DNA from: Octopus sinensis | Taxonomy: Eukaryota | Length of the DNA: 64,000 bases | NCBI RefSeq assembly: GCF_006345805.1 | Contig: NC_043002.1 | Span: 87,854,001-87,918,000 of the forward strand | Direction: 5' to 3' | Shown here: positions 3,144-61,405 of the stretch, in pieces | Layout: each line of letters begins with the position of its first letter | How positions within the stretch are numbered: position 1 is the stretch's first letter | Translations under genes and position numbers: made by a program | The notes under the pieces: model-generated | The model's input: only the letters and a program-made list of their open reading frames with translations | Told to the model about the DNA's origin: nothing | Databases searched by the model: none

Positions 3144-4641
3144 GAAATCACGTGATTTGGTGGTCTCGGAGCTAGGATGGCAGGGGTTCTCTCGCGCTTG
3201 TAACGAATATCGAATGTGAGAGCGCACTAAACGGATTAAACTAGCAGTATCGTCGGCTCTTAGAGAACACCCACGTTAAAGTGACGATAAACACTACGTT
3301 TTGCTTCGTATATTACTTCTACCTCGAACAGAAGTTTTCTAACGGTCTAGTTTGCTAGTTAGAAAATCAGTGATTGTATGACACTATTTTCTGTATATTG
3401 TAATCGAGGCCAGACCTGTACCACGCCTGGCAAACGAGTGCCCATTGCTGAAGCCATCCATTAAGATTGAAATGGCGATGATTGAAGTCATCCAATAAGA
3501 TTGAAAGGCGGCGAGCAGACAGAAGCGTTTGCACGCCGGGCGAAATGCGTCGCCTTATTTCGTCTGCTGTTACGTTCTGAGTTCAAATTCCGCCGAGGTC
3601 GACTTTGCCTTTCATCCTTTCGGGGTCGATTAAATAAGTACCAGTTACGAACTGGGGTCGATATAATCGACTTAATCCGTTTGTCCTCTCTGTGTTTAGC
3701 CCCTTGTGGGTAATAAAGAAATAGGCATTACGTCTATCTTTATGTTGTGAGTTCAAATTCCGCCGAGGTCGACTTTGCCTTTCATCCTTTCGGGGTCGAT
3801 AAATTAAGTACCAGTTATGCACTGGAATCGGTGTAATCGACTTAATCCATTTGTCTGTCCTTGTTTGTCCTCTCTGTGCTTAGCCCCTTGTGGGTAGTAA
3901 AGAAATAGGTATTTCGTCTATCTTTACGTTCTGAGTTCAAATTCCGCCGAGGTCGACTTTGCCTTTCATCCTTTCGGGGTCGATTAAATAAGTACCAGTT
4001 ACGAACTGGGGTTCGATATAATCGACTTAATCCGTTGGTCTGCCCTTGTTTGTCCTCTCTGTGTTTAGCCCCTTGTGGGTAGTAAAGAAATAGGTATTTT
4101 GTTTTCCGCTACGTTCTGAGTTCAAATTCCACCGAGGTCGACTTTGCCTTTCATCCTTTCGGAGTCGATAAATTAAGTATCAGTTATGCACTGGGATCGG
4201 TGTAATCGACTTAATTCCTTTGTCTGTCCTTCTTTGTCCTCTCTGTGCTTAGCCCCTTGTGGGTAGTAAAGAAATAGGTATTTCGTCTATCTTTACGTTC
4301 TGAGTTCAAATTCCGCCGAGGTCGACTTTGCTTTCATCCTTTCGGAGTCGATAAATTAAGTATCAGTTACTCACTGGGGTCGATGTAATCGACTTAATCC
4401 GTTTGTCCTTGTTTGTCCCCTCTATGCTTAGCCCCTTGTGGGCAATAAAGAAATAAGATTGAAATCACGTGATCTGGTGGTCTCGGAGCTAGGGTGATAG
4501 GAGTTCTTTCCCCGCTTGCAATGAATATCAAGAACGAGAGCACACTGAATAAACCAACTGGAAGAGATGTCTTCCTGGAATTAAAATAGTAGTATCGTCG
4601 GTTCTTAGAGAATAAACACGTTAAAGTGTTGATAAACACTA
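3144..4641 (+). repeat. Diverged local direct duplication (3144-3298 vs 4461-4641) interrupted by a SINE multimer
   Basis: gaaatcacgtgatYtggtggtctcggagctagg...gttaaagtg..gataaacactac occurs twice. Confidence 0.8.
3507..4457 (+). mobile_element. tRNA-SINE family A (Meta-domain-like), 5-unit multimer
   Basis: One tRNA head and five ~170-186 bp units with gtcgactttgcctttcatcctttcggggtcgat; flanked by 13-bp direct repeat aataagattgaaa. Confidence 0.9.
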
Positions 4642-5122: not shown

Positions 5123-5261
5123 TATATATTGTATGTGTATATATATACATATATATATAATATGTATGTGTTATATATATATTATATATATATATATATA
5201 TGTATGTGTATTATATATATATATATATATATATAATATTATATATATATATATATATATA

Positions 5262-5408
5262 TTGGTAAAAACGGTAAGATAACAAAAGAAAGAGACCTCA
5301 ATATTATGTAAATATTTTACGTTTCGAGCCTTCGCTCTTCTACAAAGATACACAGAAAAAAACAAGGAGAGAAAAAATGTGTGTAGTAGCTAACGATCTA
5401 TCATGGCG

Positions 5409-5412
<4 letters not shown>
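5262..5412 (-). mobile_element. Solo PLE pLTR-like fragment with decayed HHR
   Basis: Homologous to 9370-9470 and to the 3' end of the PLE at 58050-59804; embedded in (TA)n. Confidence 0.75.
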
Positions 5413-5467
<55 letters not shown>

Positions 5468-5588
5468 CAATTAAGGAACGGCCATAATAGGCCATTCACC
5501 CACTAGAATAACAGCCAAAGCTTCTACTACCCGCAAATAAAGATTAATTCCGTAAACAGGAGAAAATTAAAAAAACATTTACCCTGTA

Positions 5589-5696
5589 ATTTCTTGTACG
5601 GTATACCGTTTCATCCGCTGTTTAATGGTAAACTAACCTGATTAAATTAAATCAAGCTAATCTTCCATAAGCCCTCGGATTCTTCAAGCAAGAAAT
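5589..5696 (-). ncRNA. Type I hammerhead ribozyme copy (1-nt insertion in core)
   Basis: Same fold as 6522-6628; core reads CTTGAAGA. Confidence 0.7.
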
Positions 5697-6081
5697 AGCT
5701 CAAGTCGGAACAGATATTTACACGAGGCATACCCAATCTTGCCAAGGCAATATCTGACCTAAAATTTTCAAATCGTCGCACTCGCGCCAAACCAAATTTA
5801 TCGGCAGCAAATAATATCAGCCGTCGATTCCATTACGGAATTAACCAAAAATTCATAATTAATCAATATAGGGTGGCAAGGAAAATTTTGTAGAATTTTA
5901 TTGCCACCAGCGGCCCAGTAGGAAAAGATTAATAGTCATAGACCATTTTTAAGTTCAACATTAACAATTAAGGAACGGCCATAATAGGCCATTCACCCAC
6001 TAGAAATAACAGCCAAAGCTTCTACCGCAAATAAAGATTAATTCCGTAAACAGGAAAAATTAAAAAAACATTTACCCTGTA

Positions 6082-6188
6082 ATTTCTTGTACGGTATACC
6101 GTTTCATCCGCTGTTTAATGGTAAACTAACCTGATTAAATTAAATCAAGCTAATCTTCCATAAGCCCTCGGATTCTTCAGCAAGAAAT
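6082..6188 (-). ncRNA. Type I hammerhead ribozyme
   Basis: Reverse complement of the 6522-6628 motif with intact core. Confidence 0.88.
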
Positions 6189-6521
6189 AGCTCAAGTCGG
6201 AACAGATATTTACACGAGGCATACCCAATCTTGCCAAGGCAATATCTGACCTAAAATTTTCAAATCGTCGCACTCGCGCCAAATTTATCGGCAGCAAATA
6301 AATATCAGCCGTCGATTCCATTACGGAATTAACCAAAAAATTCATAATTAATCAATATAGGGTGGCATGGAAAATTTTGTAGAATTTTATTGCCACCAGC
6401 GGCCCAGTAGGAAAAAATTAAATAGTCATAGACCATTTTTAAGTTCAACATTAACAATTAAGGAACGGCCATAATAGGCCATTCACCCACTAGAAATAAC
6501 AGCCAAAGCTAAACTTGAGCT

Positions 6522-6628
6522 ATTTCTTGCTGAAGAATCCGAGGGCTTATGGAAGATTAGCTTGATTTAATTTAATCAGGTTAGTTTACCATTAAACAGC
6601 GGATGAAACGGTATACCGTACAAGAAAT
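6522..6628 (+). ncRNA. Type I hammerhead ribozyme
   Basis: Stem I ATTTCTTG/CAAGAAAT; CTGAAGA; stem II ATCCG/CGGAT; GAAA; palindromic stem III ACGGTATACCGT; GUA site, predicted cut after 6620. Confidence 0.9.
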
Positions 6629-7011
6629 TACAGGGTAAATGTTTTTTTAATTTTCTCCTGTTTACGGAATTAATCTTTATTTGCGGTAGAAGCTTTGGCT
6701 GTTATTTCTAGTGGGTGAATGGCCTATTATGGCCGTTCCTTAATGTTTGATGTTGAACTTAAAAATGGTCTATGACTATTTAATTTTTTCCTACTGGGCC
6801 GCTGGTGGCATAAAATTCTACAAAATTTTCCTTGCCACCCTATATTGATTAATTATGAATTTTTTGGTTAATTCCGTAATGGAATCGACGGCTGATATTT
6901 ATTTGCTGCCGATAAATTTGGCGCGAGTGCGACGATTTGAAAATTTTAGGTCAGATATTGCCTTGGCAAGATTGGGTATGCCTCGTGTAAATATCTGTTC
7001 CGACTTGAGCT

Positions 7012-7118
7012 ATTTCTTGCTGAAGAATCCGAGGGCTTATGGAAGATTAGCTTGATTTAATTTAATCAGGTTAGTTTACCATTAAACAGCGGATGAAACG
7101 GTATACCGTACAAGAATT
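7012..7118 (+). ncRNA. Type I hammerhead ribozyme
   Basis: Array copy; CTGAAGA at 7020, predicted cut after 7110. Confidence 0.87.
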
Positions 7119-7499
7119 ACAGGGTAAATGTTTTTTTAATTTTCTCCTGTTTACGGAATTAATCTTTATTTGCGGTAGAAGCTTTGGCTGTTATTTCTAG
7201 TGGGTGAATGGCCTATTATGGCCGTTCCTTAATGTTAATGTTGAACTTAAAAATGGTCTATGACTATTTAATTTTTTCCTACTGGGCCGCTGGTGGCAAT
7301 AAAATTCTACAAAATTTTCCTTGCCACCCTATATTGATTAATTATGAATTTTTTGGTTAATTCCGTAATGGAATCGACGGCTGATATTTATTTGCTGCCG
7401 ATAAATTTGGCGCGAGTGCGACGATTTGAAAATTTTAGGTCAGATATTGCCTTGGCAGATTGGGTATGCCTCGTGTAAATATCTGTTCCGACTTGAGCT

Positions 7500-7609
7500 A
7501 TTTCTTGCTGAAGAATCCGAGGGCTTATGGAAGATTAGCTTGATTTAATTTAAATTAACAGGTTAGTTTACCATTAACAGCGGATGAAACGGTATACCGT
7601 ACAAGAAAT
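7500..7609 (+). ncRNA. Type I hammerhead ribozyme
   Basis: Array copy; CTGAAGA at 7508, predicted cut after 7601. Confidence 0.87.
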
Positions 7610-7988
7610 TACAGGGTAAATGTTTTTTTAATTTTCTCCTGTTTACGGAATTAATCTTTATTTGCGTAGAAGCTTTGGCTGTTATTTCTAGTGGGTGAAT
7701 GGCCTATTATGGCCGTTCCTTAATTGTTAATGTTGAACTTAAAAATGGTCTATGACTATTTAATTTTTTCCTACTGGCCGCTGGTGGCAATAAAATTCTA
7801 CAAAATTTTCCTTGCCACCCTATATTGATTAATTATGAATTTTTGGTTAATTCCGTAATGGAATCGACGGCTGATATTTTTTGCTGCCGATAAATTGGCG
7901 CGAGTGCGACGATTTGAAAATTTTAGGTCAGATATTGCCTTGGCAAGATTGGGTATGCCTCGTGTAAATATCTGTTCCGACTTGAGCT

Positions 7989-8095
7989 ATTTCTTGCTGA
8001 AGAATCCGAGGGCTTATGGAAGATTAGCTTGATTTAATTTAATCAGGTTAGTTTACCATTAAACAGCGGATGAAACGGTATACCGTACAAGAAAT
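7989..8095 (+). ncRNA. Type I hammerhead ribozyme
   Basis: Array copy; CTGAAGA at 7997, predicted cut after 8087. Confidence 0.88.
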
Positions 8096-8471
8096 TACAG
8101 GGTAAATGTTTTTTTAATTTTCTCCTGTTTACGGAATAATCTTTATTTGCGGTAGAAGCTTTGGCTGTTATTCTAGTGGGTGAATGGCCTATTATGGCCG
8201 TTCCTTAATTGTTAATGTGAACTTAAAAATGGTCTATGACTATTTAATTTTTTCCTACTGGGCCGCTGGTGGCAATAAAATTCTACAATTTTCCTTGCCA
8301 CCCTATATTGATTAATTATGAATTTTTTGGTTAATTCCGTAATGGAATCGACGGCTGATATTTATTGCTGCCGATAAATTTGGCGCGAGTGCGACGATTT
8401 GAAAATTTTAGGTCAGATATTGCCTTGGCAAGATTGGGTATGCCGTGTAAATATATGTTCCGACTTGAGCT

Positions 8472-8577
8472 ATTTCTTGCTGAAGAATCCGAGGGCTTAT
8501 GGAAGATTAGCTTGATTTAATTTAATCAGGTTAGTTTACCATTAAACAGCGGATGAAACGGTATACCGTACAGAAAT
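8472..8577 (+). ncRNA. Type I hammerhead ribozyme
   Basis: Array copy; CTGAAGA at 8480, predicted cut after 8570; 1-nt deletion in stem I. Confidence 0.82.
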
Positions 8578-8811
8578 TACAGGGTAAATGTTTTTTTAAT
8601 TTTCTCCTGTTTACGGAATTAATCTTTATTTGCGGTAGAAGCTTTGGTTGTTATTTCTAGTGGGTGAATGGCCTATTATGGCCGTTCCTTAATTGTTAAT
8701 GTTGAACTTAAAAATGGTCTATGACTATTTAATTTTTTCCTACTGGGCCGCTGGTGGCAATAAAATTCTACAAAATTTTCCTTGCCACCCTATATTGATT
8801 AATATATATAT

Positions 8812-8863: not shown

Positions 8864-9055
8864 TCTGTAAAATAATATGTGACAATTATTCAAAAGCCAA
8901 GATAAAACTCTGAGTTTCGGATGCCGAAGTGGAAATCCACAACACCATCTTTTCGGTTATCTGCCCCGAAGAGATGGTGTTGTGGATTTCCACCTCGGCA
9001 TCCGAAACTCAGAGTTTTATCTTGGCTTTTGAATAATTCTCACATATTATTTTAC

Positions 9056-9090
<35 letters not shown>

Positions 9091-9319
9091 TATATATATA
9101 TATATAATATATATATATATATATCTGTAAAATAATATGTGACAATTATTCAAAAGCCAAGATAAAACTCTGAGTTTCGGATGCCGAAGTGGAAATCCAC
9201 AACACCATCTTTTCGGTTATCTGGCCCCGAAGAGATGGTGTTGTGGATTTCCACCTCGGCATCCGAAACTCAGAGTTTTATCTTGGCTTTTGAATAATTC
9301 TCACATATTATTTTACAGA
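8864..9319. repeat. Two tandem ~195-bp foldback elements with HHR-like arms
   Basis: 8864-9058 and 9124-9319 each have ~93-bp inverted arms; (TA)n spacer between them. Confidence 0.9.
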
Positions 9320-9323
9320 TATA

Positions 9324-9369
<46 letters not shown>

Positions 9370-9373
<4 letters not shown>

Positions 9374-9561
9374 CGCCATGATAGATCGTTAGCTACTACA
9401 CACATTTTTTCTCTCCTTGTTTTTTTCTGTGTATCTTTCTGTAGAAGAGCGAAGGCTCGAAACGTAAAAGACTTTTATATTTCTGAGCGCTATTCTAATA
9501 CATTTGTTTGTTTGTACACCACCTAACTTCGTCTTTTGTTTATTTTCGTAAACTTTCCCTT
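9370..9561 (+). mobile_element. Solo PLE pLTR-like fragment with minimal HHR variant (9434-9471)
   Basis: TCTTT-CTGTAGA-A-GAGC-gaag-GCTC-GAAA-CG-TA-AAAGA; homologous to the 3' end of the PLE at 58050-58250. Confidence 0.8.
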
Positions 9562-9634
<73 letters not shown>

Positions 9635-15332: not shown

Positions 15333-15765
15333 AATTTATCAATATAGGGTAGCAAAAAAAATTCAAGAAAAATTTTCTGCAACCAGCGGTCAAGTGAGAA
15401 AATAGAAATAGTCACAGACTATATAATATATTCAACAAATATGGCACGGTTACGTTGGATTTCGAAAAATTAGGATATATACACTCGGGGCTTCAATGGT
15501 ATCGCCTCGTGTGTATATGTTCGCCTTTTCTTTTGGAGACTTTGCTGATGAAACAAGCCAATCGTAAACGGATTTAATTTAATTTAATTAAGTTCGATTG
15601 CATAAAAATTGTTGAAACCTTGCAGGGTACAAAGTTGAAAAGGACAAATGTTTTTATTTCTCCTTTAGCTTTCAGAATTACTACTATTTTTGCGGTTTTG
15701 AGTTTGGCTGCTCTTTTCAAGTGAGTTGAACGACCTGTAAGGGTCTTTCCTTAATATTTTGTATA
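15333..15765 (+). mobile_element. HHR element family 2, copy 1
   Basis: ~430 bp; alignable to the 490-bp unit; near-identical to 16110-16542. Confidence 0.85.
15538..15636 (+). ncRNA. Type I hammerhead ribozyme
   Basis: GACTTTG-CTGATGA-AACAA...TTGTT-GAAA-CCT-tgca-GGG-TA-CAAAGTT; predicted cut after 15629. Confidence 0.88.
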
Positions 15766-15782
15766 CATATATATATATATAC

Positions 15783-16109: not shown

Positions 16110-16542
16110 AATTTATCAATATAGGGTAGCAAAAAAAATTCAAGAAAAATTTTCTGCAACCAGCGGTCAAGTGAGAAAATAGAAATAGTCACAGACTATA
16201 TAATATATTCAACAAATATGGCACGGTTACGTTGGATTTCGAAAAATTAGGATATATACACTCGGGGCTTCAATGGTATCGCCTCGTGTGTATATGTTCG
16301 CCTTTTCTTTTGGAGACTTTGCTGATGAAACAAGCCAATCGTAAACGGATTTAATTTAATTTAATTAAGTTCGATTGCGTAAAAATTGTTGAAACCTTGC
16401 AGGGTACAAAGTTGAAAAGGACAAATGTTTTTATTTCTCCTTTAGCTTTCAGAATTACTACTATTTTTGCGGTTTTGAGTTTGGCTGCTCTTTTCAAGTG
16501 AGTTGAATGACCTGTAAGGGTCTTTCCTTAATATTTTGTATA
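16110..16542 (+). mobile_element. HHR element family 2, copy 2
   Basis: Duplicate of 15333-15765. Confidence 0.85.
16315..16413 (+). ncRNA. Type I hammerhead ribozyme
   Basis: Same fold as 15538-15636; predicted cut after 16406. Confidence 0.88.
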
Positions 16543-16559
16543 CATATATATATATATAC

Positions 16560-16835: not shown

Positions 16836-17115
16836 GGGTATATGGCGTAGTGGTTAAGAACGCAGGCTACTCACTCCAAGATTCCGAGTTCGATTCCGGG
16901 CAGTGACCTGGATAATAATAATAATAATAGCAACATCGAAAATACCGTAGGAATGAGAACCCAGGTTCGAAATTTCCCCAAGACACCTGATGAAGGCTGG
17001 AGGGTATATCAGCCGAAACGTTGTGTTAACAACAAACAAGATGAGGGTAAATATCAATCAGATATAAATAATATAAATAATGTACATAATTCCTCATCTC
17101 TTAAATGTAGAACTG
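16836..17115 (+). mobile_element. tRNA-headed SINE-like element carrying an HHR
   Basis: A-box TGGCGTAGTGG (16843), B-box GAGTTCGATTC (16886), (ATA)n linker, HHR downstream. Confidence 0.8.
16982..17027 (+). ncRNA. Minimal PLE-type hammerhead ribozyme
   Basis: GACAC-CTGATGA-A-GGCTG-loop-CAGCC-GAAA-CG-TT-GTGTT; palindromic ACGT in place of stem III. Confidence 0.82.
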
Positions 17116-17334: not shown

Positions 17335-17762
17335 ATACTAGTTTTAAATTTTGGCACGCGACAGGCAGGTTCGGGGGAGATGGTAAGTCGATTCCATCGA
17401 AACTAGTACTCAATTAGTACTTATTTTATCGACCCCAAAAGGATTAAAGGCTAAGCTGACCGCGGCGAAATTTAAACTCAGAACGTAGAGACGGATGAAA
17501 TGCCACTAAGCACTTTTGCCTGGCATGCTAACGATTCTGCCAGCACGTTGCCCTATAGATAATATAAATAATGGTTTCAAGTTACCCCACAAGGGCTACA
17601 ATTTTGGTGGAGGGGATGAGTCGATTACATCGACCCCTGTGATCAACTCGTACTTATTTAATCGACCACGAAAGGATGAAAGGCAAAGTCGACCTCGGCG
17701 GAATTTGAACTCAGAACGTAGAGGCAGACGAAATACCTATTTCTTTACTACCCACAAGGGAC
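17335..17762 (-). mobile_element. Two SINE family A copies
   Basis: gaaaggatgaaaggcaaagtcgacctcggcggaatttgaactcagaacg is antisense to the family A body. Confidence 0.85.
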
Positions 17763-18318
17763 TATGAATTAACCCCGAAATTGGACCAATACGGTAATAA
17801 CGGATTTTTTAGAAATTTCTATCGGTTTGTTTCGAGACGCATAAATTATAATGGTTATTGTCAATTTCTGTCTTTTTTTCGGCATATTTGGCATCAGAAT
17901 TTTTCTTTTGCCCTTATCTTGTAAATTATTTATAAATTTAACCTTTAAAGGTATTTTTTGATATGCTGGCCATTGATAACATTTTTTCCCGAAAAATATT
18001 TCATCCTAAATTAGTTATAAATTGAATAGTGTTCACTTCCGTATTCTCTCACTATGTGAAAGTTTCTAGTTCGAATCACGCGTGTCTCGAGATGTGCCGC
18101 AGATTTTCTGTTTTGGATATATTTGGGGTACTTAGGTCTGCTTGGGACTTAGTGCTTGCTTTTTTCCATGGGTATGAGTAAGTATTTCACTTATATCCCA
18201 CGTATTTATCGCTGAAGAGGGGAAAATTCTTATGAATTAACCCCGAAATTGGACCAATACGGTAATAACGGATTTTTTAGAAATTTCTATCGGTTTGTTT
18301 CGAGACGCATAAATTATA
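17763..18318 (+). mobile_element. HHR element family 3: 468-bp monomer with 88-bp terminal direct repeat
   Basis: 17763-17850 is repeated at 18231-18318; followed by (TA)n. Confidence 0.88.
18206..18265 (+). ncRNA. Type I hammerhead ribozyme
   Basis: TTATCG-CTGAAGA-GGGG-loop-CCCC-GAAA-TTG-gac-CAA-TA-CGGTAA; predicted cut after 18259. Confidence 0.85.
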
Positions 18319-18320
18319 TG

Positions 18321-18394
<74 letters not shown>

Positions 18395-18399
18395 ATTTT

Positions 18400-19221
18400 T
18401 GCTTCGGTAGGCTGCGTTAGTTTACGGCTGCCATGACGCCTAGAATACAGACGTAGATTTTCGTTTTCACTGAATGCATCAGGCAGAGATTTTGCATCAA
18501 GTTTTGCCAAAAGGAGACAAAGACACACGTACACAAATATAAGTTTATATACACACGCTTCAAAGCTTCTAGAAGATTCAGCAGACCTTTAGAGATGATG
18601 CCATGGGCAAAGCACAGATAAAGGAGTGGTGCAACCACTTCAAACATAGTTGAACCTCGGTGGAGAGCGAGATACGCTCGGAAAGGCCATCCACAAGCCG
18701 AAGCGAGGAACCGACCACATGATAAAAAAAAGCGAATAACCATGGAAGCTCGTCGTGTAACAATCCAGGAAATTGTTCACGAAGAGGTAATGAATACAGG
18801 ATCAGTGTATGCCATTTTAACAGAGGATTTGTGCATACAGAAAGTGTAGACAAAATTCGTCCCCTAGGAGTTGGCAGAGCAGCAGAAGCCACTCCCCATG
18901 GAAATCACTCAGGACATGCTGGACTATGCAAACTGCAACCCAGACTTCATAAAAATAATAATCACTAGTGATGAGACATGAGTTTATGGTCTCTCCCCGA
19001 TGCGTTCGGTCGTTTTGCGCTTAAACGAAATTCCGACGAGCGCACATTACATTCTGTACACTAGGTGTAACAACCGGAAATGACACGGCCTAGCTGCACG
19101 AAAATTTTTTAACATGAGCAGGAAGGGTGGCGTCACTTCCCACGCAAAGGATTTTGCCAACACAGCATTAGTTGTGGCGGGAAAAAAATAAAGTCGGATA
19201 CTTTTTGAACATACTTCATAT
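18400..19221 (+). mobile_element. Decayed mariner transposon
   Basis: Remnant motifs CIKFC, IKEW..HFK, RPSTS, IITSDET.VYG; TIR-like end ggatactttttgaacatacttcata. Confidence 0.8.
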
Positions 19222-31654: not shown

Positions 31655-32228
31655 GCAGCAAGCTGGCAGAATCGTTAGCACGCCGGGCGAAATGCTTAGC
31701 GGTATTTCGTCCGCTGCTACGTTCTGAGTTCAAATTCCACCGAGGTCGATTTTGCCTTTCATCTTTTCGGGGTCGATTAAATAAGTACCAGTTACGCACT
31801 GGGGTCGATATAATCGACTTAATGCGTTTGTCAGTCATTGTGAGTCCCCTCTGTGTGTAGCCCCTTGTGGGCAGTAAAGAAATAGGTATTTCTTCTGCCG
31901 CTACGTTCTGGGTTCAAATTCCGCCGTGGTCGACTTTGCCTTCCATCCTTTCGGGGTCGATTAAATAAGTACCAGTTACGCACTGGGGTCGATATAATTG
32001 ACTTAATCCGTTTGTCTGTCCTTGTTTGTCCTCTCTGTGTTTAGCCCCTTGTGGGTAGTAAAGAAATAGGTATTTCGTTTGTCTTTATGATCTGAGTTCA
32101 AATTCCATCGAGATCGACTTTGCCTTTTTATCCTTTTGGGGTCGATAAATTAAGTACCAGTGAAAGACTGGGGTCGATGTAATCGACTAGTCCCCTCCCC
32201 AAAATTTCCTTTAGTAGAAAGGATTATT
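31655..32228 (+). mobile_element. SINE family A trimer
   Basis: Head plus three bodies; the last has the alternative cccctcccc tail. Confidence 0.9.
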
Positions 32229-43296: not shown

Positions 43297-43911
43297 AGTA
43301 GAAAAGATTATCATTATTATTACTATTAATCGACTGGGACCCTCCCCACAAATTTTAGGCCTTGTGCCTTCAGTAGAAAAGATTATCATTATTATTACTA
43401 TTAATCGACTGGTCCTCTCCCCACAAATTTTAGGCCTTGTGCCTTCAGTAGAAAAGATTATCATTATTATTACTATTAATCGACTGGTCCCCTCCCCCAA
43501 AATTTTAGGCCTTGTGCCTTCAGTAGAAAAGATTATCATTATTATTACTATTAATCGACTGGTCCCCTCCCCCAAAATTTTAGGCCTTGTGCCTTCAGTA
43601 GAAAAGATTATCATTATTATTACTATTAATCGACTGGTCCCCTCCCCCAAAATTTTAGGCCTTGTGCCTTCAGTAGAAAAGATTATCATTATTATTACTA
43701 TTAATCGACTGGTCCTCTCCCCCAAAATTTTAGGCCTTGTGCCTTCAGTAGAAAAGATTATCATTATTATTACTATTAATCGACTGGTCCCCTCCCCAAA
43801 AATTTTAGGCCTTGTGCCTTCAGTAGAAAAGATTATCATTATTATTACTATTAATCGACTGGTCCCCTCCCCCAAAATTTTAGGCCTTGTGCCTTCAGTA
43901 GAAAAGATTAT
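43297..43911. repeat. 75-bp minisatellite, ~8 copies, derived from a SINE A tail
   Basis: Unit agtagaaaagattatcattattattactattaatcgactggtcccctcccccaaaattttaggccttgtgccttc. Confidence 0.95.
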
Positions 43912-58049: not shown

Positions 58050-58050
<1 letters not shown>

Positions 58051-59803
58051 TGGGAGAATTCACAAAAAAAAACAAAAGACGAAGACAGGTGGTGTAGACA
58101 ACAAACAGATGTATTAGTATAACGCTCGGGAAGTGAAATAGTCTAACGTTTCGAGCCCACGCTCTTCCACAGAGAGGAACACAGAAAGAAACAAGGAGAG
58201 AAAATATAGAATGTGTAGTGGCTAGCGAGCTATCATGACGAATGCCGGACAGAAGGGTCACACAGGAGAGTTAGGGAGAAGAGGAGATAATAAAGTAGTG
58301 GTGATCCCAAAATGAAGGTATAAGAGAGTTTGTATGTGCGTGTCGAAGAGGGCTGGTGATCGTAACATGTGTGTGTATGTGTAGGTGTGAAAATGTGGGT
58401 CTGAGAAGTGGTCAGTGTTGATGTGTTCGTGGTGGTATGTTGTGATGTGATGTGCTATGTGGTATGGTGGTGTAAGGTGTAGTGGTGTGTGCTGTGGTGT
58501 GATGGTGTTGGGATATGGGGGAGGCGAGAGTGAGGAAAGCAAGGGTGGGGTGTGGGTTAGGCTGAGGATGGAGGTAGAGGTGGGGTATGTGGGAGTGGGT
58601 GTAAGGGATAGTGTGGGTGGGATGGGGAAGGATAGGGAAGTGGGGGTGGAATGTGTAGGGATGGGGTGGGCTTACGAGGGGGGAAAAAGAAAGTGGTAGG
58701 AGTGAAGAGAAGACAGGAGAGTAGGAGTGAAGAGAAGTAGGAGTCGGAGCAAGAGAGGAGAGGTGAATGGGAGGAAGTAGGTATGAGGGGGAGAGAGGCG
58801 AGGGGAGGAAGTTAGATGAAGAGGGGCGGAGAGTTGAGCCCATGTGACGCAAAAGAGCGAAGAGAGAAGATGAATCCCTGTTCACGGCGTAAGCGGGAGT
58901 CCTGATGGCCCCTGAGCGAGGACAATCCGAACACAGACAGGTGTTGCAAAGAGTGACCGGTAGAACGAAAATGGCGCGAGACCGGGGTGCCATTGGCGAG
59001 TCCAATGTCGTGGAGATGTTCCGAGAACCGGTCAGCCAAGCGACTTCCCGTTTGCCCGATGTATAGAGAAGGGCAGAGGGCGCAGGAGATGCAGTAGATG
59101 ATATTGGTAGAAGTGCAGGTGAAGAAGTCGGTGTTGTGATAGGGTCGATGATGGGTGCCGGTGAGGAGGGTGGTGTTGGAGAGGTATGGACAAGTGCGGA
59201 AGCGTGGGTGGGAGCAGGGGAACGAGCCGGGTTGGGATGTTAGGGTTAGGAAAGAAGCTGTAGACCAAGTGATCTCGTATATTGTGGGCTCGTTTGAGAG
59301 GAGGAGTCGGTTAGGGAAGATGTGCGAGGTGGAGGGATCGGACTGGAGTCGCCGAGAGGCTCGGAGATGGTGCGTTGGAGAGTAGAGTGGTGGGTGGTAG
59401 GTGATGTGAAATGGGAGGCGAGAGACGGTGGAGCGGGTTCGGGGGAGAGATCAGAGGCACGGCCCACAAAACGTGCTCTGGCAAAGGCGGTGTGGATAGT
59501 GGTGAGGAGATATCCACGTAGGATGAAGTGGCGAGCCATGAGTTGAGACTGAGTCTCAAAGTTATGGTCGTCACTACAGAGCCTGCGTACACGGAGGAAT
59601 TGGGAATAGGGGATGGAAAGCTTGGTGTGTTTAGGGTGGGATGAAGAGAAGTTGAGGTATAAGTGTGAGTCTGTGTGTTTGTAGTGGCTGGAGGTGGTGA
59701 GAGTGGAGGGATGAATGCTGACCGAAATGTCAAGAAAGGAGACAGAGGTGTCAGAGATAGTGCAGGAGAAGTGGAGGGCAGGATGGAAAGATTTGACAAA
59801 AGA

Positions 59804-59804
<1 letters not shown>
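58050..59804 (-). mobile_element. 5'-truncated Penelope-like element (RT thumb, C-terminal GIY-YIG, pLTR)
   Basis: SFLDI..YKHTDSHLYL..SSHPKHTKLSIPYSQFLRVRRLCS; FTCTSTNIIYCISC..C..LYIGQTG..LADRFSEH...GLN; frameshifted; (TA)n at both ends. Confidence 0.92.
58142..58177 (-). ncRNA. Minimal HHR variant in PLE pLTR
   Basis: TCT-CTGTGGA-A-GAGC-gtgg-GCTC-GAAA-CG-TT-AGA. Confidence 0.55.
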
Positions 59805-59862
<58 letters not shown>

Positions 59863-61068: not shown

Positions 61069-61080
61069 TATATATATATA
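60720..61080. repeat. (TA)n microsatellite
   Basis: Dinucleotide tract. Confidence 0.95.
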
Positions 61081-61405
61081 ACTTATAAATAAGGGCAAAA
61101 GAAAAAAATTCTTATCCCAAATATGCCGAAAATAGACAAATGTCAATTCTTATGAATTAACTCTGAAATTGAGACCAATACGGTAATAACGGAATTTTTT
61201 AGAAATTTCCATCGGCTTGTTTTGAGGCCGTGTTAATAGTGATAAATTATAATTGGTTATTGACAATTTGTCTATTTTCGGCATATTTGGCATTAGAATT
61301 TTTTTCATTTGCCCTTATTTTATAAGTTATATTTATAAATTCAATCTTTAAAGGTATTTTTTAATATGCTGGCCTTTTTTTTCGAAAAGTTTTATCCTAT
61401 ATTAG
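61080..61405 (+). mobile_element. Partial HHR family 3 element with 5' inversion
   Basis: 61148-61405 matches 17763-18015; 61080-61147 is the reverse complement of ~61260-61328. Confidence 0.8.

Follow-up and report, generated by a model that had tools for sequence, protein, structure and literature searches.

The window analysed here, a stretch of 64,000 nucleotides of Octopus sinensis DNA, holds a copy of a 468-bp repeat which is a high-copy, non-coding family and which very probably belongs to the retrozyme class. This copy, at 17763-18318, is 1.19 units long and may be a non-LTR retrozyme copy made on a circular template, a reading in which our confidence is evenly balanced. The 468-bp family is new within the known class of animal retrozymes: no description of it, and no map of retrozyme insertion ends, was found among the titles listed by a literature search. 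Both the retrozyme class and the model of more-than-unit copying are already published, and the idea of a circle, which the initial annotation of this DNA had put forward, is likewise not new, as it appears in PMC4209133 and PMC7229834.

The architecture of the copy is defined by an exact direct repeat of 88 bp, since the sequence of 17763-17850 returns unchanged 468 bp further on, at 18231-18318, and the match is not extendable leftwards. The elements of the copy and its junctions are the following.

17619 to 17764, plus strand: left flank, a piece of a dispersed repeat with a 184-bp period, cut off at the junction.
17763 to 17802, plus strand: partial hammerhead, with the 3' arm of stem II, GAAA, stem III, AUA and the 3' arm of stem I, without CUGANGA.
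17763 to 17850, plus strand: terminal repeat, 5' copy, whose start lies in the stem II loop and whose first 2 bases also fit the left flank.
17792 to 18259, plus strand: monomer from cut site to cut site, 468 nt, 33% GC.
18201 to 18270, plus strand: type I hammerhead motif in full, with the cut predicted to fall after 18259 (AUA).
18231 to 18318, plus strand: terminal repeat, 3' copy, which stops 59 nt beyond the cut site and whose last 4 bases, TATA, fit both the element and the tract.
18315 to 18394, unstranded: (TA)n tract at the 3' junction.

The initial annotation had the element starting inside the stem II loop of a hammerhead, and the start at 17763 confirms it; the partial hammerhead there has a predicted cut site of its own, after 17791. 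The complete ribozyme that it saw rebuilt at 18206-18265, within a 468-bp unit, corresponds to the type I motif at 18201-18270. Its identical 88-bp terminal repeat next to (TA)n also held as to identity and offset, and its length is refined to 86-88 bp once the TA shared with the left flank is allowed for.

Within the motif, the 5' strand of stem I (18201-18211) is followed by CTGAAGA (18212-18218) and by stem II (18219-18244, loop at 18230-18233), and then by GAAA (18245-18248), stem III (18249-18257), the AUA and the 3' strand of stem I (18260-18270). All core bases and the three stems are present, stem II being long and interrupted by an internal loop. When 18150-18315 was compared with Rfam, the sole match was to Hammerhead_1, over the whole model at 18206-18265, with a weak score (12 bits against a gathering threshold of 34, E 5.2). 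This hammerhead is not listed in the Rfam scan of the whole window at E<=1, and the matches which that scan did return were discarded as microsatellite artefacts. A scan for the hammerhead pattern found eight motifs in the window, where 200 dinucleotide shuffles averaged 0.015, and none of 5000 shuffles of the 556-bp element produced a match. These motifs fall into three families with the same core, whose stems differ and yet are still paired. Judging from the sequence, the motif at 18201-18270 is a hammerhead with predicted self-cleavage.

The 468 unit, folded as a circle, has a predicted energy of -103.0 kcal/mol (z -2.5, 57% of bases paired), a value as low being reached by 1 of 200 shuffles, which makes the predicted self-pairing moderate. 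In the predicted circle stem II is certain, stem I has a pairing probability of 0.15 and stem III one of 0.02, and the active hammerhead fold is a minor state that costs 1.4 kcal/mol. Given such weak stems I and III and so costly an active fold, a circle could persist uncut. A preprint (bioRxiv 10.64898/2026.07.22.740005) reports that eight of nine Xenopus dimers did not cleave in vitro and one did, so a good-looking motif need not be active.

At the left junction, nine other copies of the 184-bp-period repeat, recognised by the same 14-base motif, continue with GGGCTA or GGGCCA, so that the TA with which the element opens could belong to either side. Tandem arrays of this dispersed family, with periods of 184 bp and 75 bp, lie at 3556-4455, 31701-32188 and 43297-43911. 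On the right, the (TA)n tract at 18315-18394 is the likely insertion target, and directly after it, at 18395-19215, stands a decayed fragment, apparently lacking its start, whose translation resembles what we take to be a mariner transposase. The two flanks thus do not belong together, which suggests that DNA was lost or rearranged at the site, and no target-site duplication adjoining both ends of the element was found. The unit has little coding capacity: read as a circle, its longest stop-free frame is 58 aa on the plus strand and 78 aa on the minus strand, its longest ATG frame is 41 aa, and its GC content of 33% is below 50%.

The window contains a second copy (61072-61405), whose two arms meet at an inversion joint with a short microhomology.

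61072 to 61147, minus strand: copy 2, inverted arm, about +67 to +143 from the cut site, ending at (TA)n.
61145 to 61405, plus strand: copy 2, forward arm, 80% identical, beginning in stem II and ending at about +223 at (TA)n.

Over the 88-bp terminal repeat, copy 2 differs by 8 substitutions and 3 gaps; since the two repeats of the first copy are identical while copy 2 differs from them, they probably stem from one template molecule or from a clonal array.

The abundance of the family is apparent from public assemblies. When all contigs of four public runs were mapped at 85% likeness to one unit (17808-18275), 4568, 3652, 163 and 78 contigs were found on it. Among the public runs which hold part of the stretch (20 of 24 listed) the best has 0.52 of its words; none of the 20 is recorded as RNA, two of the four mapped runs (X7 and X13) are guessed to be RNA, and contigs by their nature cannot show circles, ends or strand. 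The four runs may represent other subfamilies or related species, and the window copy differs from more than 90% of the depth of run X1 at 13 of the 40 places listed (of 104). A search with the exact 21-base family motif found no locus in metagenome contigs and none in viral contigs.

The contigs close the unit on itself. Among the 32 of 8628 pieces listed, overlapping ones with 7-26 differences cover 17808-17955, 17934-18133, 18020-18164, 18085-18215, 18148-18263 and 18186-18275, and the seam from 18275 to 17808 is crossed by 17, 13, 2 and 1 contigs in the four runs. As the reference was chosen permuted, crossing of the seam is by itself no proof of a circle, and closure rests on the overlaps. 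With 31 letters required on each side, the listed pieces leave about 17824-17838 and 17957-17964 unbridged, and copy 2 spans both. The unit is thus bridged all round by contigs and copy 2, so that its head-to-tail order is a family trait and not a local accident; no full dimer or longer tandem array of the 468 family was seen. Summed contig depth on 17872-17983 is 5-10 times that just downstream. We considered the low depth at 17984-18110 as a sign of ends or of an uneven circle and set this aside, depth not being copy number and the majority variant diverging there. A joint from 18275 to 17817, which lacks about 8 bases just past the ribozyme, occurs only in X7 and X13, in one contig each (depth 94 and 250), and may mark an expressed subfamily.

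The one new lead is that 3' ends group at AT words which recur in the unit. The initial annotation had asked whether start points permute around one 468-nt circle. Ends do differ between copies, but those joined to (TA)n on the 3' side, namely three in the window and those of the listed contigs, cluster at +59, +138-143 and +223-225 from the cut, and none lies at the cut site; the clustering was noticed post hoc and on few ends. Among the 24 of 414 loose ends listed, 13 are on the 3' side. Those that run straight into (TA)n lie at 17934 (+143; 16 contigs of run X2) and 18014 (+223; one X7 contig). Four at 17987 run on in a variant, of which the X13 form matches the end of copy 2, one X13 contig departs at 18161 (+370) into non-TA sequence, and the remaining ones look like sequence variants. 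The +59 end is absent among the listed ends, and this, with the X13 end at 18161, indicates that the three sites are not the whole story. No sites at which many molecules begin or end are listed, the material consisting of contigs only.

Each cluster falls at one of three similar words of the monomer.

17842 to 17850, plus strand: AT word 1 (TAAATTATA), +51 to +59; its second copy is the end of the insertion 17763-18318.
17922 to 17934, plus strand: AT word 2 (TAAATTATTTATA), +131 to +143; 3' end of the 16 X2 contigs and of the inverted arm of copy 2.
18007 to 18019, plus strand: AT word 3 (TAAATTAGTTATA), +216 to +228; 3' end of the forward arm of copy 2 and of the X7 contig.

TAAATTA occurs in the monomer exactly three times, at +51, +131 and +216, followed each time by TTATA (+55, +139 and +224); TATA alone occurs five times. 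The strict TAAATTA is not kept in copy 2, where only a looser word is found. The neighbouring hammerhead families also end at AT words, 132 and 232 nt past the cuts in a 489-bp array and 137 nt past them in a 777-period family. We suggest, tentatively and with more doubt than conviction, that the three AT words, about 80-85 nt apart, could be built-in primer sites that pair with nicked (TA)n, so that a circle would have set points of entry and the length copied could range from part of a turn to several. Such pairing between target and template differs from what is described for the anole element, which was shown to start at a site not homologous to its target (PMC11167929), whereas the ends of the 468 family coincide with TATA-like words. 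If true, a genome sequence alone would suffice to test the rolling-circle model of animal retrozymes. The 5' ends of both window copies lie in stem II, and a clustering there was also considered; it is unsupported by the listed joints and loose ends, which lie at 18067-18209. Five opposite-strand joints, at different places, are present among the 15 of 19 joints listed, and these resemble the inversions of Penelope-like elements.

The 468 family shares the window with other hammerhead repeats and with Penelope-like sequences. The 489-bp array, at 5465-8802, is made of about 2 inverted and 4.7 forward units with (TA)n at both outer ends, and is near-clonal, at most 8 of 26 substitution calls being judged real and the rest misalignments at ends or indels; for testing rolling-circle copying it is better suited than the 468 copy. 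The 777-bp-period family is present at 15335-15766 and 16112-16543, with 2 differences in 431 bp, each copy consisting of an inverted and a forward arm between (TA)n tracts, and is clearly related to the 489-bp family (0 of 200 shuffles score as high). According to the initial annotation, the 468-bp sequence was not visibly related to the family it called 490-bp, which is a fair description: the 468-versus-489 score was reached by 60 of 500 shuffles, that of copy 2 against 489 by 21 of 500 and that of 468 against the 777-period family by 6 of 500, and profile matches to the neighbour families had E values of 4-7.5, in register, in one direction and were absent in the other. Kinship of the 468 unit with the 489 and 777 families therefore stays below significance, a hint drawn from sequence comparison.

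On the minus strand, a 5'-truncated Penelope-like element lies at 58050-59805 between (TA)n tracts, with reverse transcriptase thumb-like and GIY-YIG frames; a Cys motif precedes the nuclease, the terminal piece contains a minimal-hammerhead-like motif, and the element looks Neptune-like by the description in PMC8557442. Its broken ORF at 58812-59805 (minus strand) matches GIY-YIG at E 0.0019, below the cut-off, and among its homologues three have GIY-YIG above the cut-off, one of which also matches the upstream frame (E 1e-14). The 468 unit shows no similarity to the five Penelope-like terminal pieces of the window, that of 58050-59805 included (best E 0.11), and this element is no more than a co-occurring candidate helper of the 468 family. 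At 8865-9320, two palindromic units of about 195 bp stand head to head, with (TA)n between them and on both outer sides; they have the look of Penelope-type terminal pieces in inverted orientation that carry a degenerate hammerhead-like motif. The related, inverted sequences at 5261-5414 and 9369-9565, which resemble the terminal piece 58050-58300, frame the 5.4-9.4 kb cluster, and another repeat fragment carries a minimal hammerhead-like motif (CTGATGA, stem, GAAAC) at 16977-17025.

How could a copy of 1.19 units arise? On the reading that we prefer, the 468 family would be transcribed in tandem, the transcript would cleave itself after AUA into 468-nt monomers, and these would be ligated into circles. 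A GIY-YIG nick in (TA)n would then prime cDNA inside the RNA, at the UAUA-like word 59 nt past the cut, and a Penelope-type reverse transcriptase would copy the RNA into the (TA)n site. From +59, synthesis would run once round the circle and 86-88 nt further, for 554-556 nt in all, across two cut sites, and would end within the stem II hairpin, after which the cDNA end would be joined to the left flank through the 2-base microhomology, with loss of target DNA. A circular template accounts both for the identity of the repeats and for synthesis having passed intact cut sites; clustering of the 3' ends, instead of a spread round the unit, counts against it. Animal non-LTR retrozymes are defined in PMC7229834, which demonstrates circles in coral, mussel and axolotl, in mussel as the predominant RNA form of these repeats, and suggests that circles, once primed, are copied into tandem cDNA with Penelope-like elements as helpers. 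Circles had already been proposed as templates for more-than-unit copying in PMC4209133, which also suggests that motifs with a short helix III cleave in multimeric RNA, whereas monomeric circles would escape cleavage. The preprint (bioRxiv 10.64898/2026.07.22.740005) ties retrozymes to pseudo-LTRs, finds monomers common and calls the mobilisation step unresolved.

The initial annotation had concluded that reverse transcription went slightly more than once around a circular or multimeric RNA, and regarded the 1.2-mer as the footprint of a circle. That the template was longer than one unit is supported by the closure of the unit, the identity of the repeats and the lack of an end at the cut; the shape itself does not show a circle, as a linear multimer gives the same. 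It is a real possibility, which we rate somewhat short of an even chance, that an uncut read-through transcript of a tandem array was internally primed by a Penelope-type enzyme, leaving a 5'-truncated partial tandem with a 59-nt tail whose repeat is a miniature pseudo-LTR. In vitro, a Penelope-like protein initiates inside RNA at preferred sites, using mainly unprocessed RNA, and needs no ribozyme cleavage (PMC11167929), so that internal priming on uncut RNA can give a partial tandem with a tail and no circle, and the 1.2-mer does not prove one. Partial tandems, inverted 5'-truncated arms and tails are standard anatomy of Penelope-like elements (PMC8557442 and PMC3846280), the ends of the 468 family do cluster at three sites, and identical repeats would also be expected from a young array with near-identical units. 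Against a linear template, the enzyme would have had to pass an intact cut site twice in 17763-18318 and as many as five times within a single arm of the 489-bp array, and such ribozymes cleave most efficiently as multimers, according to PMC7229834 and PMC4209133.

An origin at the DNA level is unlikely. The copy would then be what deletion or unequal crossover left of a longer tandem array, or else a segment transferred when (TA)n tracts recombined, which would suit the mismatched flanks and the lack of a target-site duplication; (TA)n-bounded duplications exist nearby, as in the 777-bp-period family with its 2 differences in 431 bp, and satellite-type local amplification is discussed for retrozymes in the preprint (bioRxiv 10.64898/2026.07.22.740005). 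Yet the 3' junction with (TA)n and the 2-base 5' microhomology match the duplication-free insertions of Penelope-like elements (PMC3846280), and the dispersal of the family would be left unexplained. We regard it as very improbable that the 468 bp come from the terminal repeat of a longer, linear Penelope-like element with fixed ends, the case that the initial annotation had set against its own reading, and that the 88-bp repeat reflects a one-off local duplication or an error of assembly, because, even if both outer junctions of 17763-18318 are known from the assembly alone, no run has more than 0.52 of the words of the stretch and depth drops after 17983, the diverged contigs together with copy 2 span the unit from end to end and largely refute it, leaving no room for a fixed start or an ORF, and the unit has no long ORF.

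Copying from a circle is the reading we favour, at no more than even odds, and a young, abundant family with scoreable 3' ends, inversions and a near-clonal neighbour array provides material for deciding between a circle and a linear multimer and for a helper search. Repeats of the 468 type seem, in addition, to influence how the (TA)n-rich parts of this genome are built.

Compared with the plant LTR retrozymes (PMC5680766 and PMC7229834), the copy at 17763-18318 has in common a terminal direct repeat round a non-coding core and one monomer between cut sites, and differs in its type I instead of type III hammerhead, its single complete ribozyme that spans the repeat, its GC content of 33% and its lack of a 4-bp target duplication. 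With Penelope-like elements that carry pseudo-LTRs, as described in PMC11167929, PMC8557442, PMC3846280 and PMC4209133, it shares the partial tandem, 5' truncation, the inverted arm, the 3' extension past the cut site, AT-rich or (TA)n targets and microhomology at the 5' junction. In contrast to an autonomous Penelope-like element, the 468 unit is without a reverse transcriptase or endonuclease ORF, its ribozyme is canonical, with a stem III, and not of the minimal form, and its sequence does not match the Penelope-like terminal pieces of the window.

The closest likeness is in kind to the metazoan non-LTR retrozymes. By the rule of the preprint (bioRxiv 10.64898/2026.07.22.740005), the copy, with one complete ribozyme, would rank as a monomer and not an 'active' dimer. 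Its 468-bp unit is slightly above the 150-450 bp of PMC7229834 and inside the 51-972 bp of the preprint. The family is set apart from these retrozymes by its long stem II with an internal loop and by being known here from sequence, with a predicted circle. What it has in common with them, as described in the same two sources, is a canonical type I hammerhead, a non-coding unit of a few hundred bases with low GC and many copies, a monomer-to-multimer organisation, co-occurrence with Penelope-like elements and the proposed route from circle to tandem cDNA.
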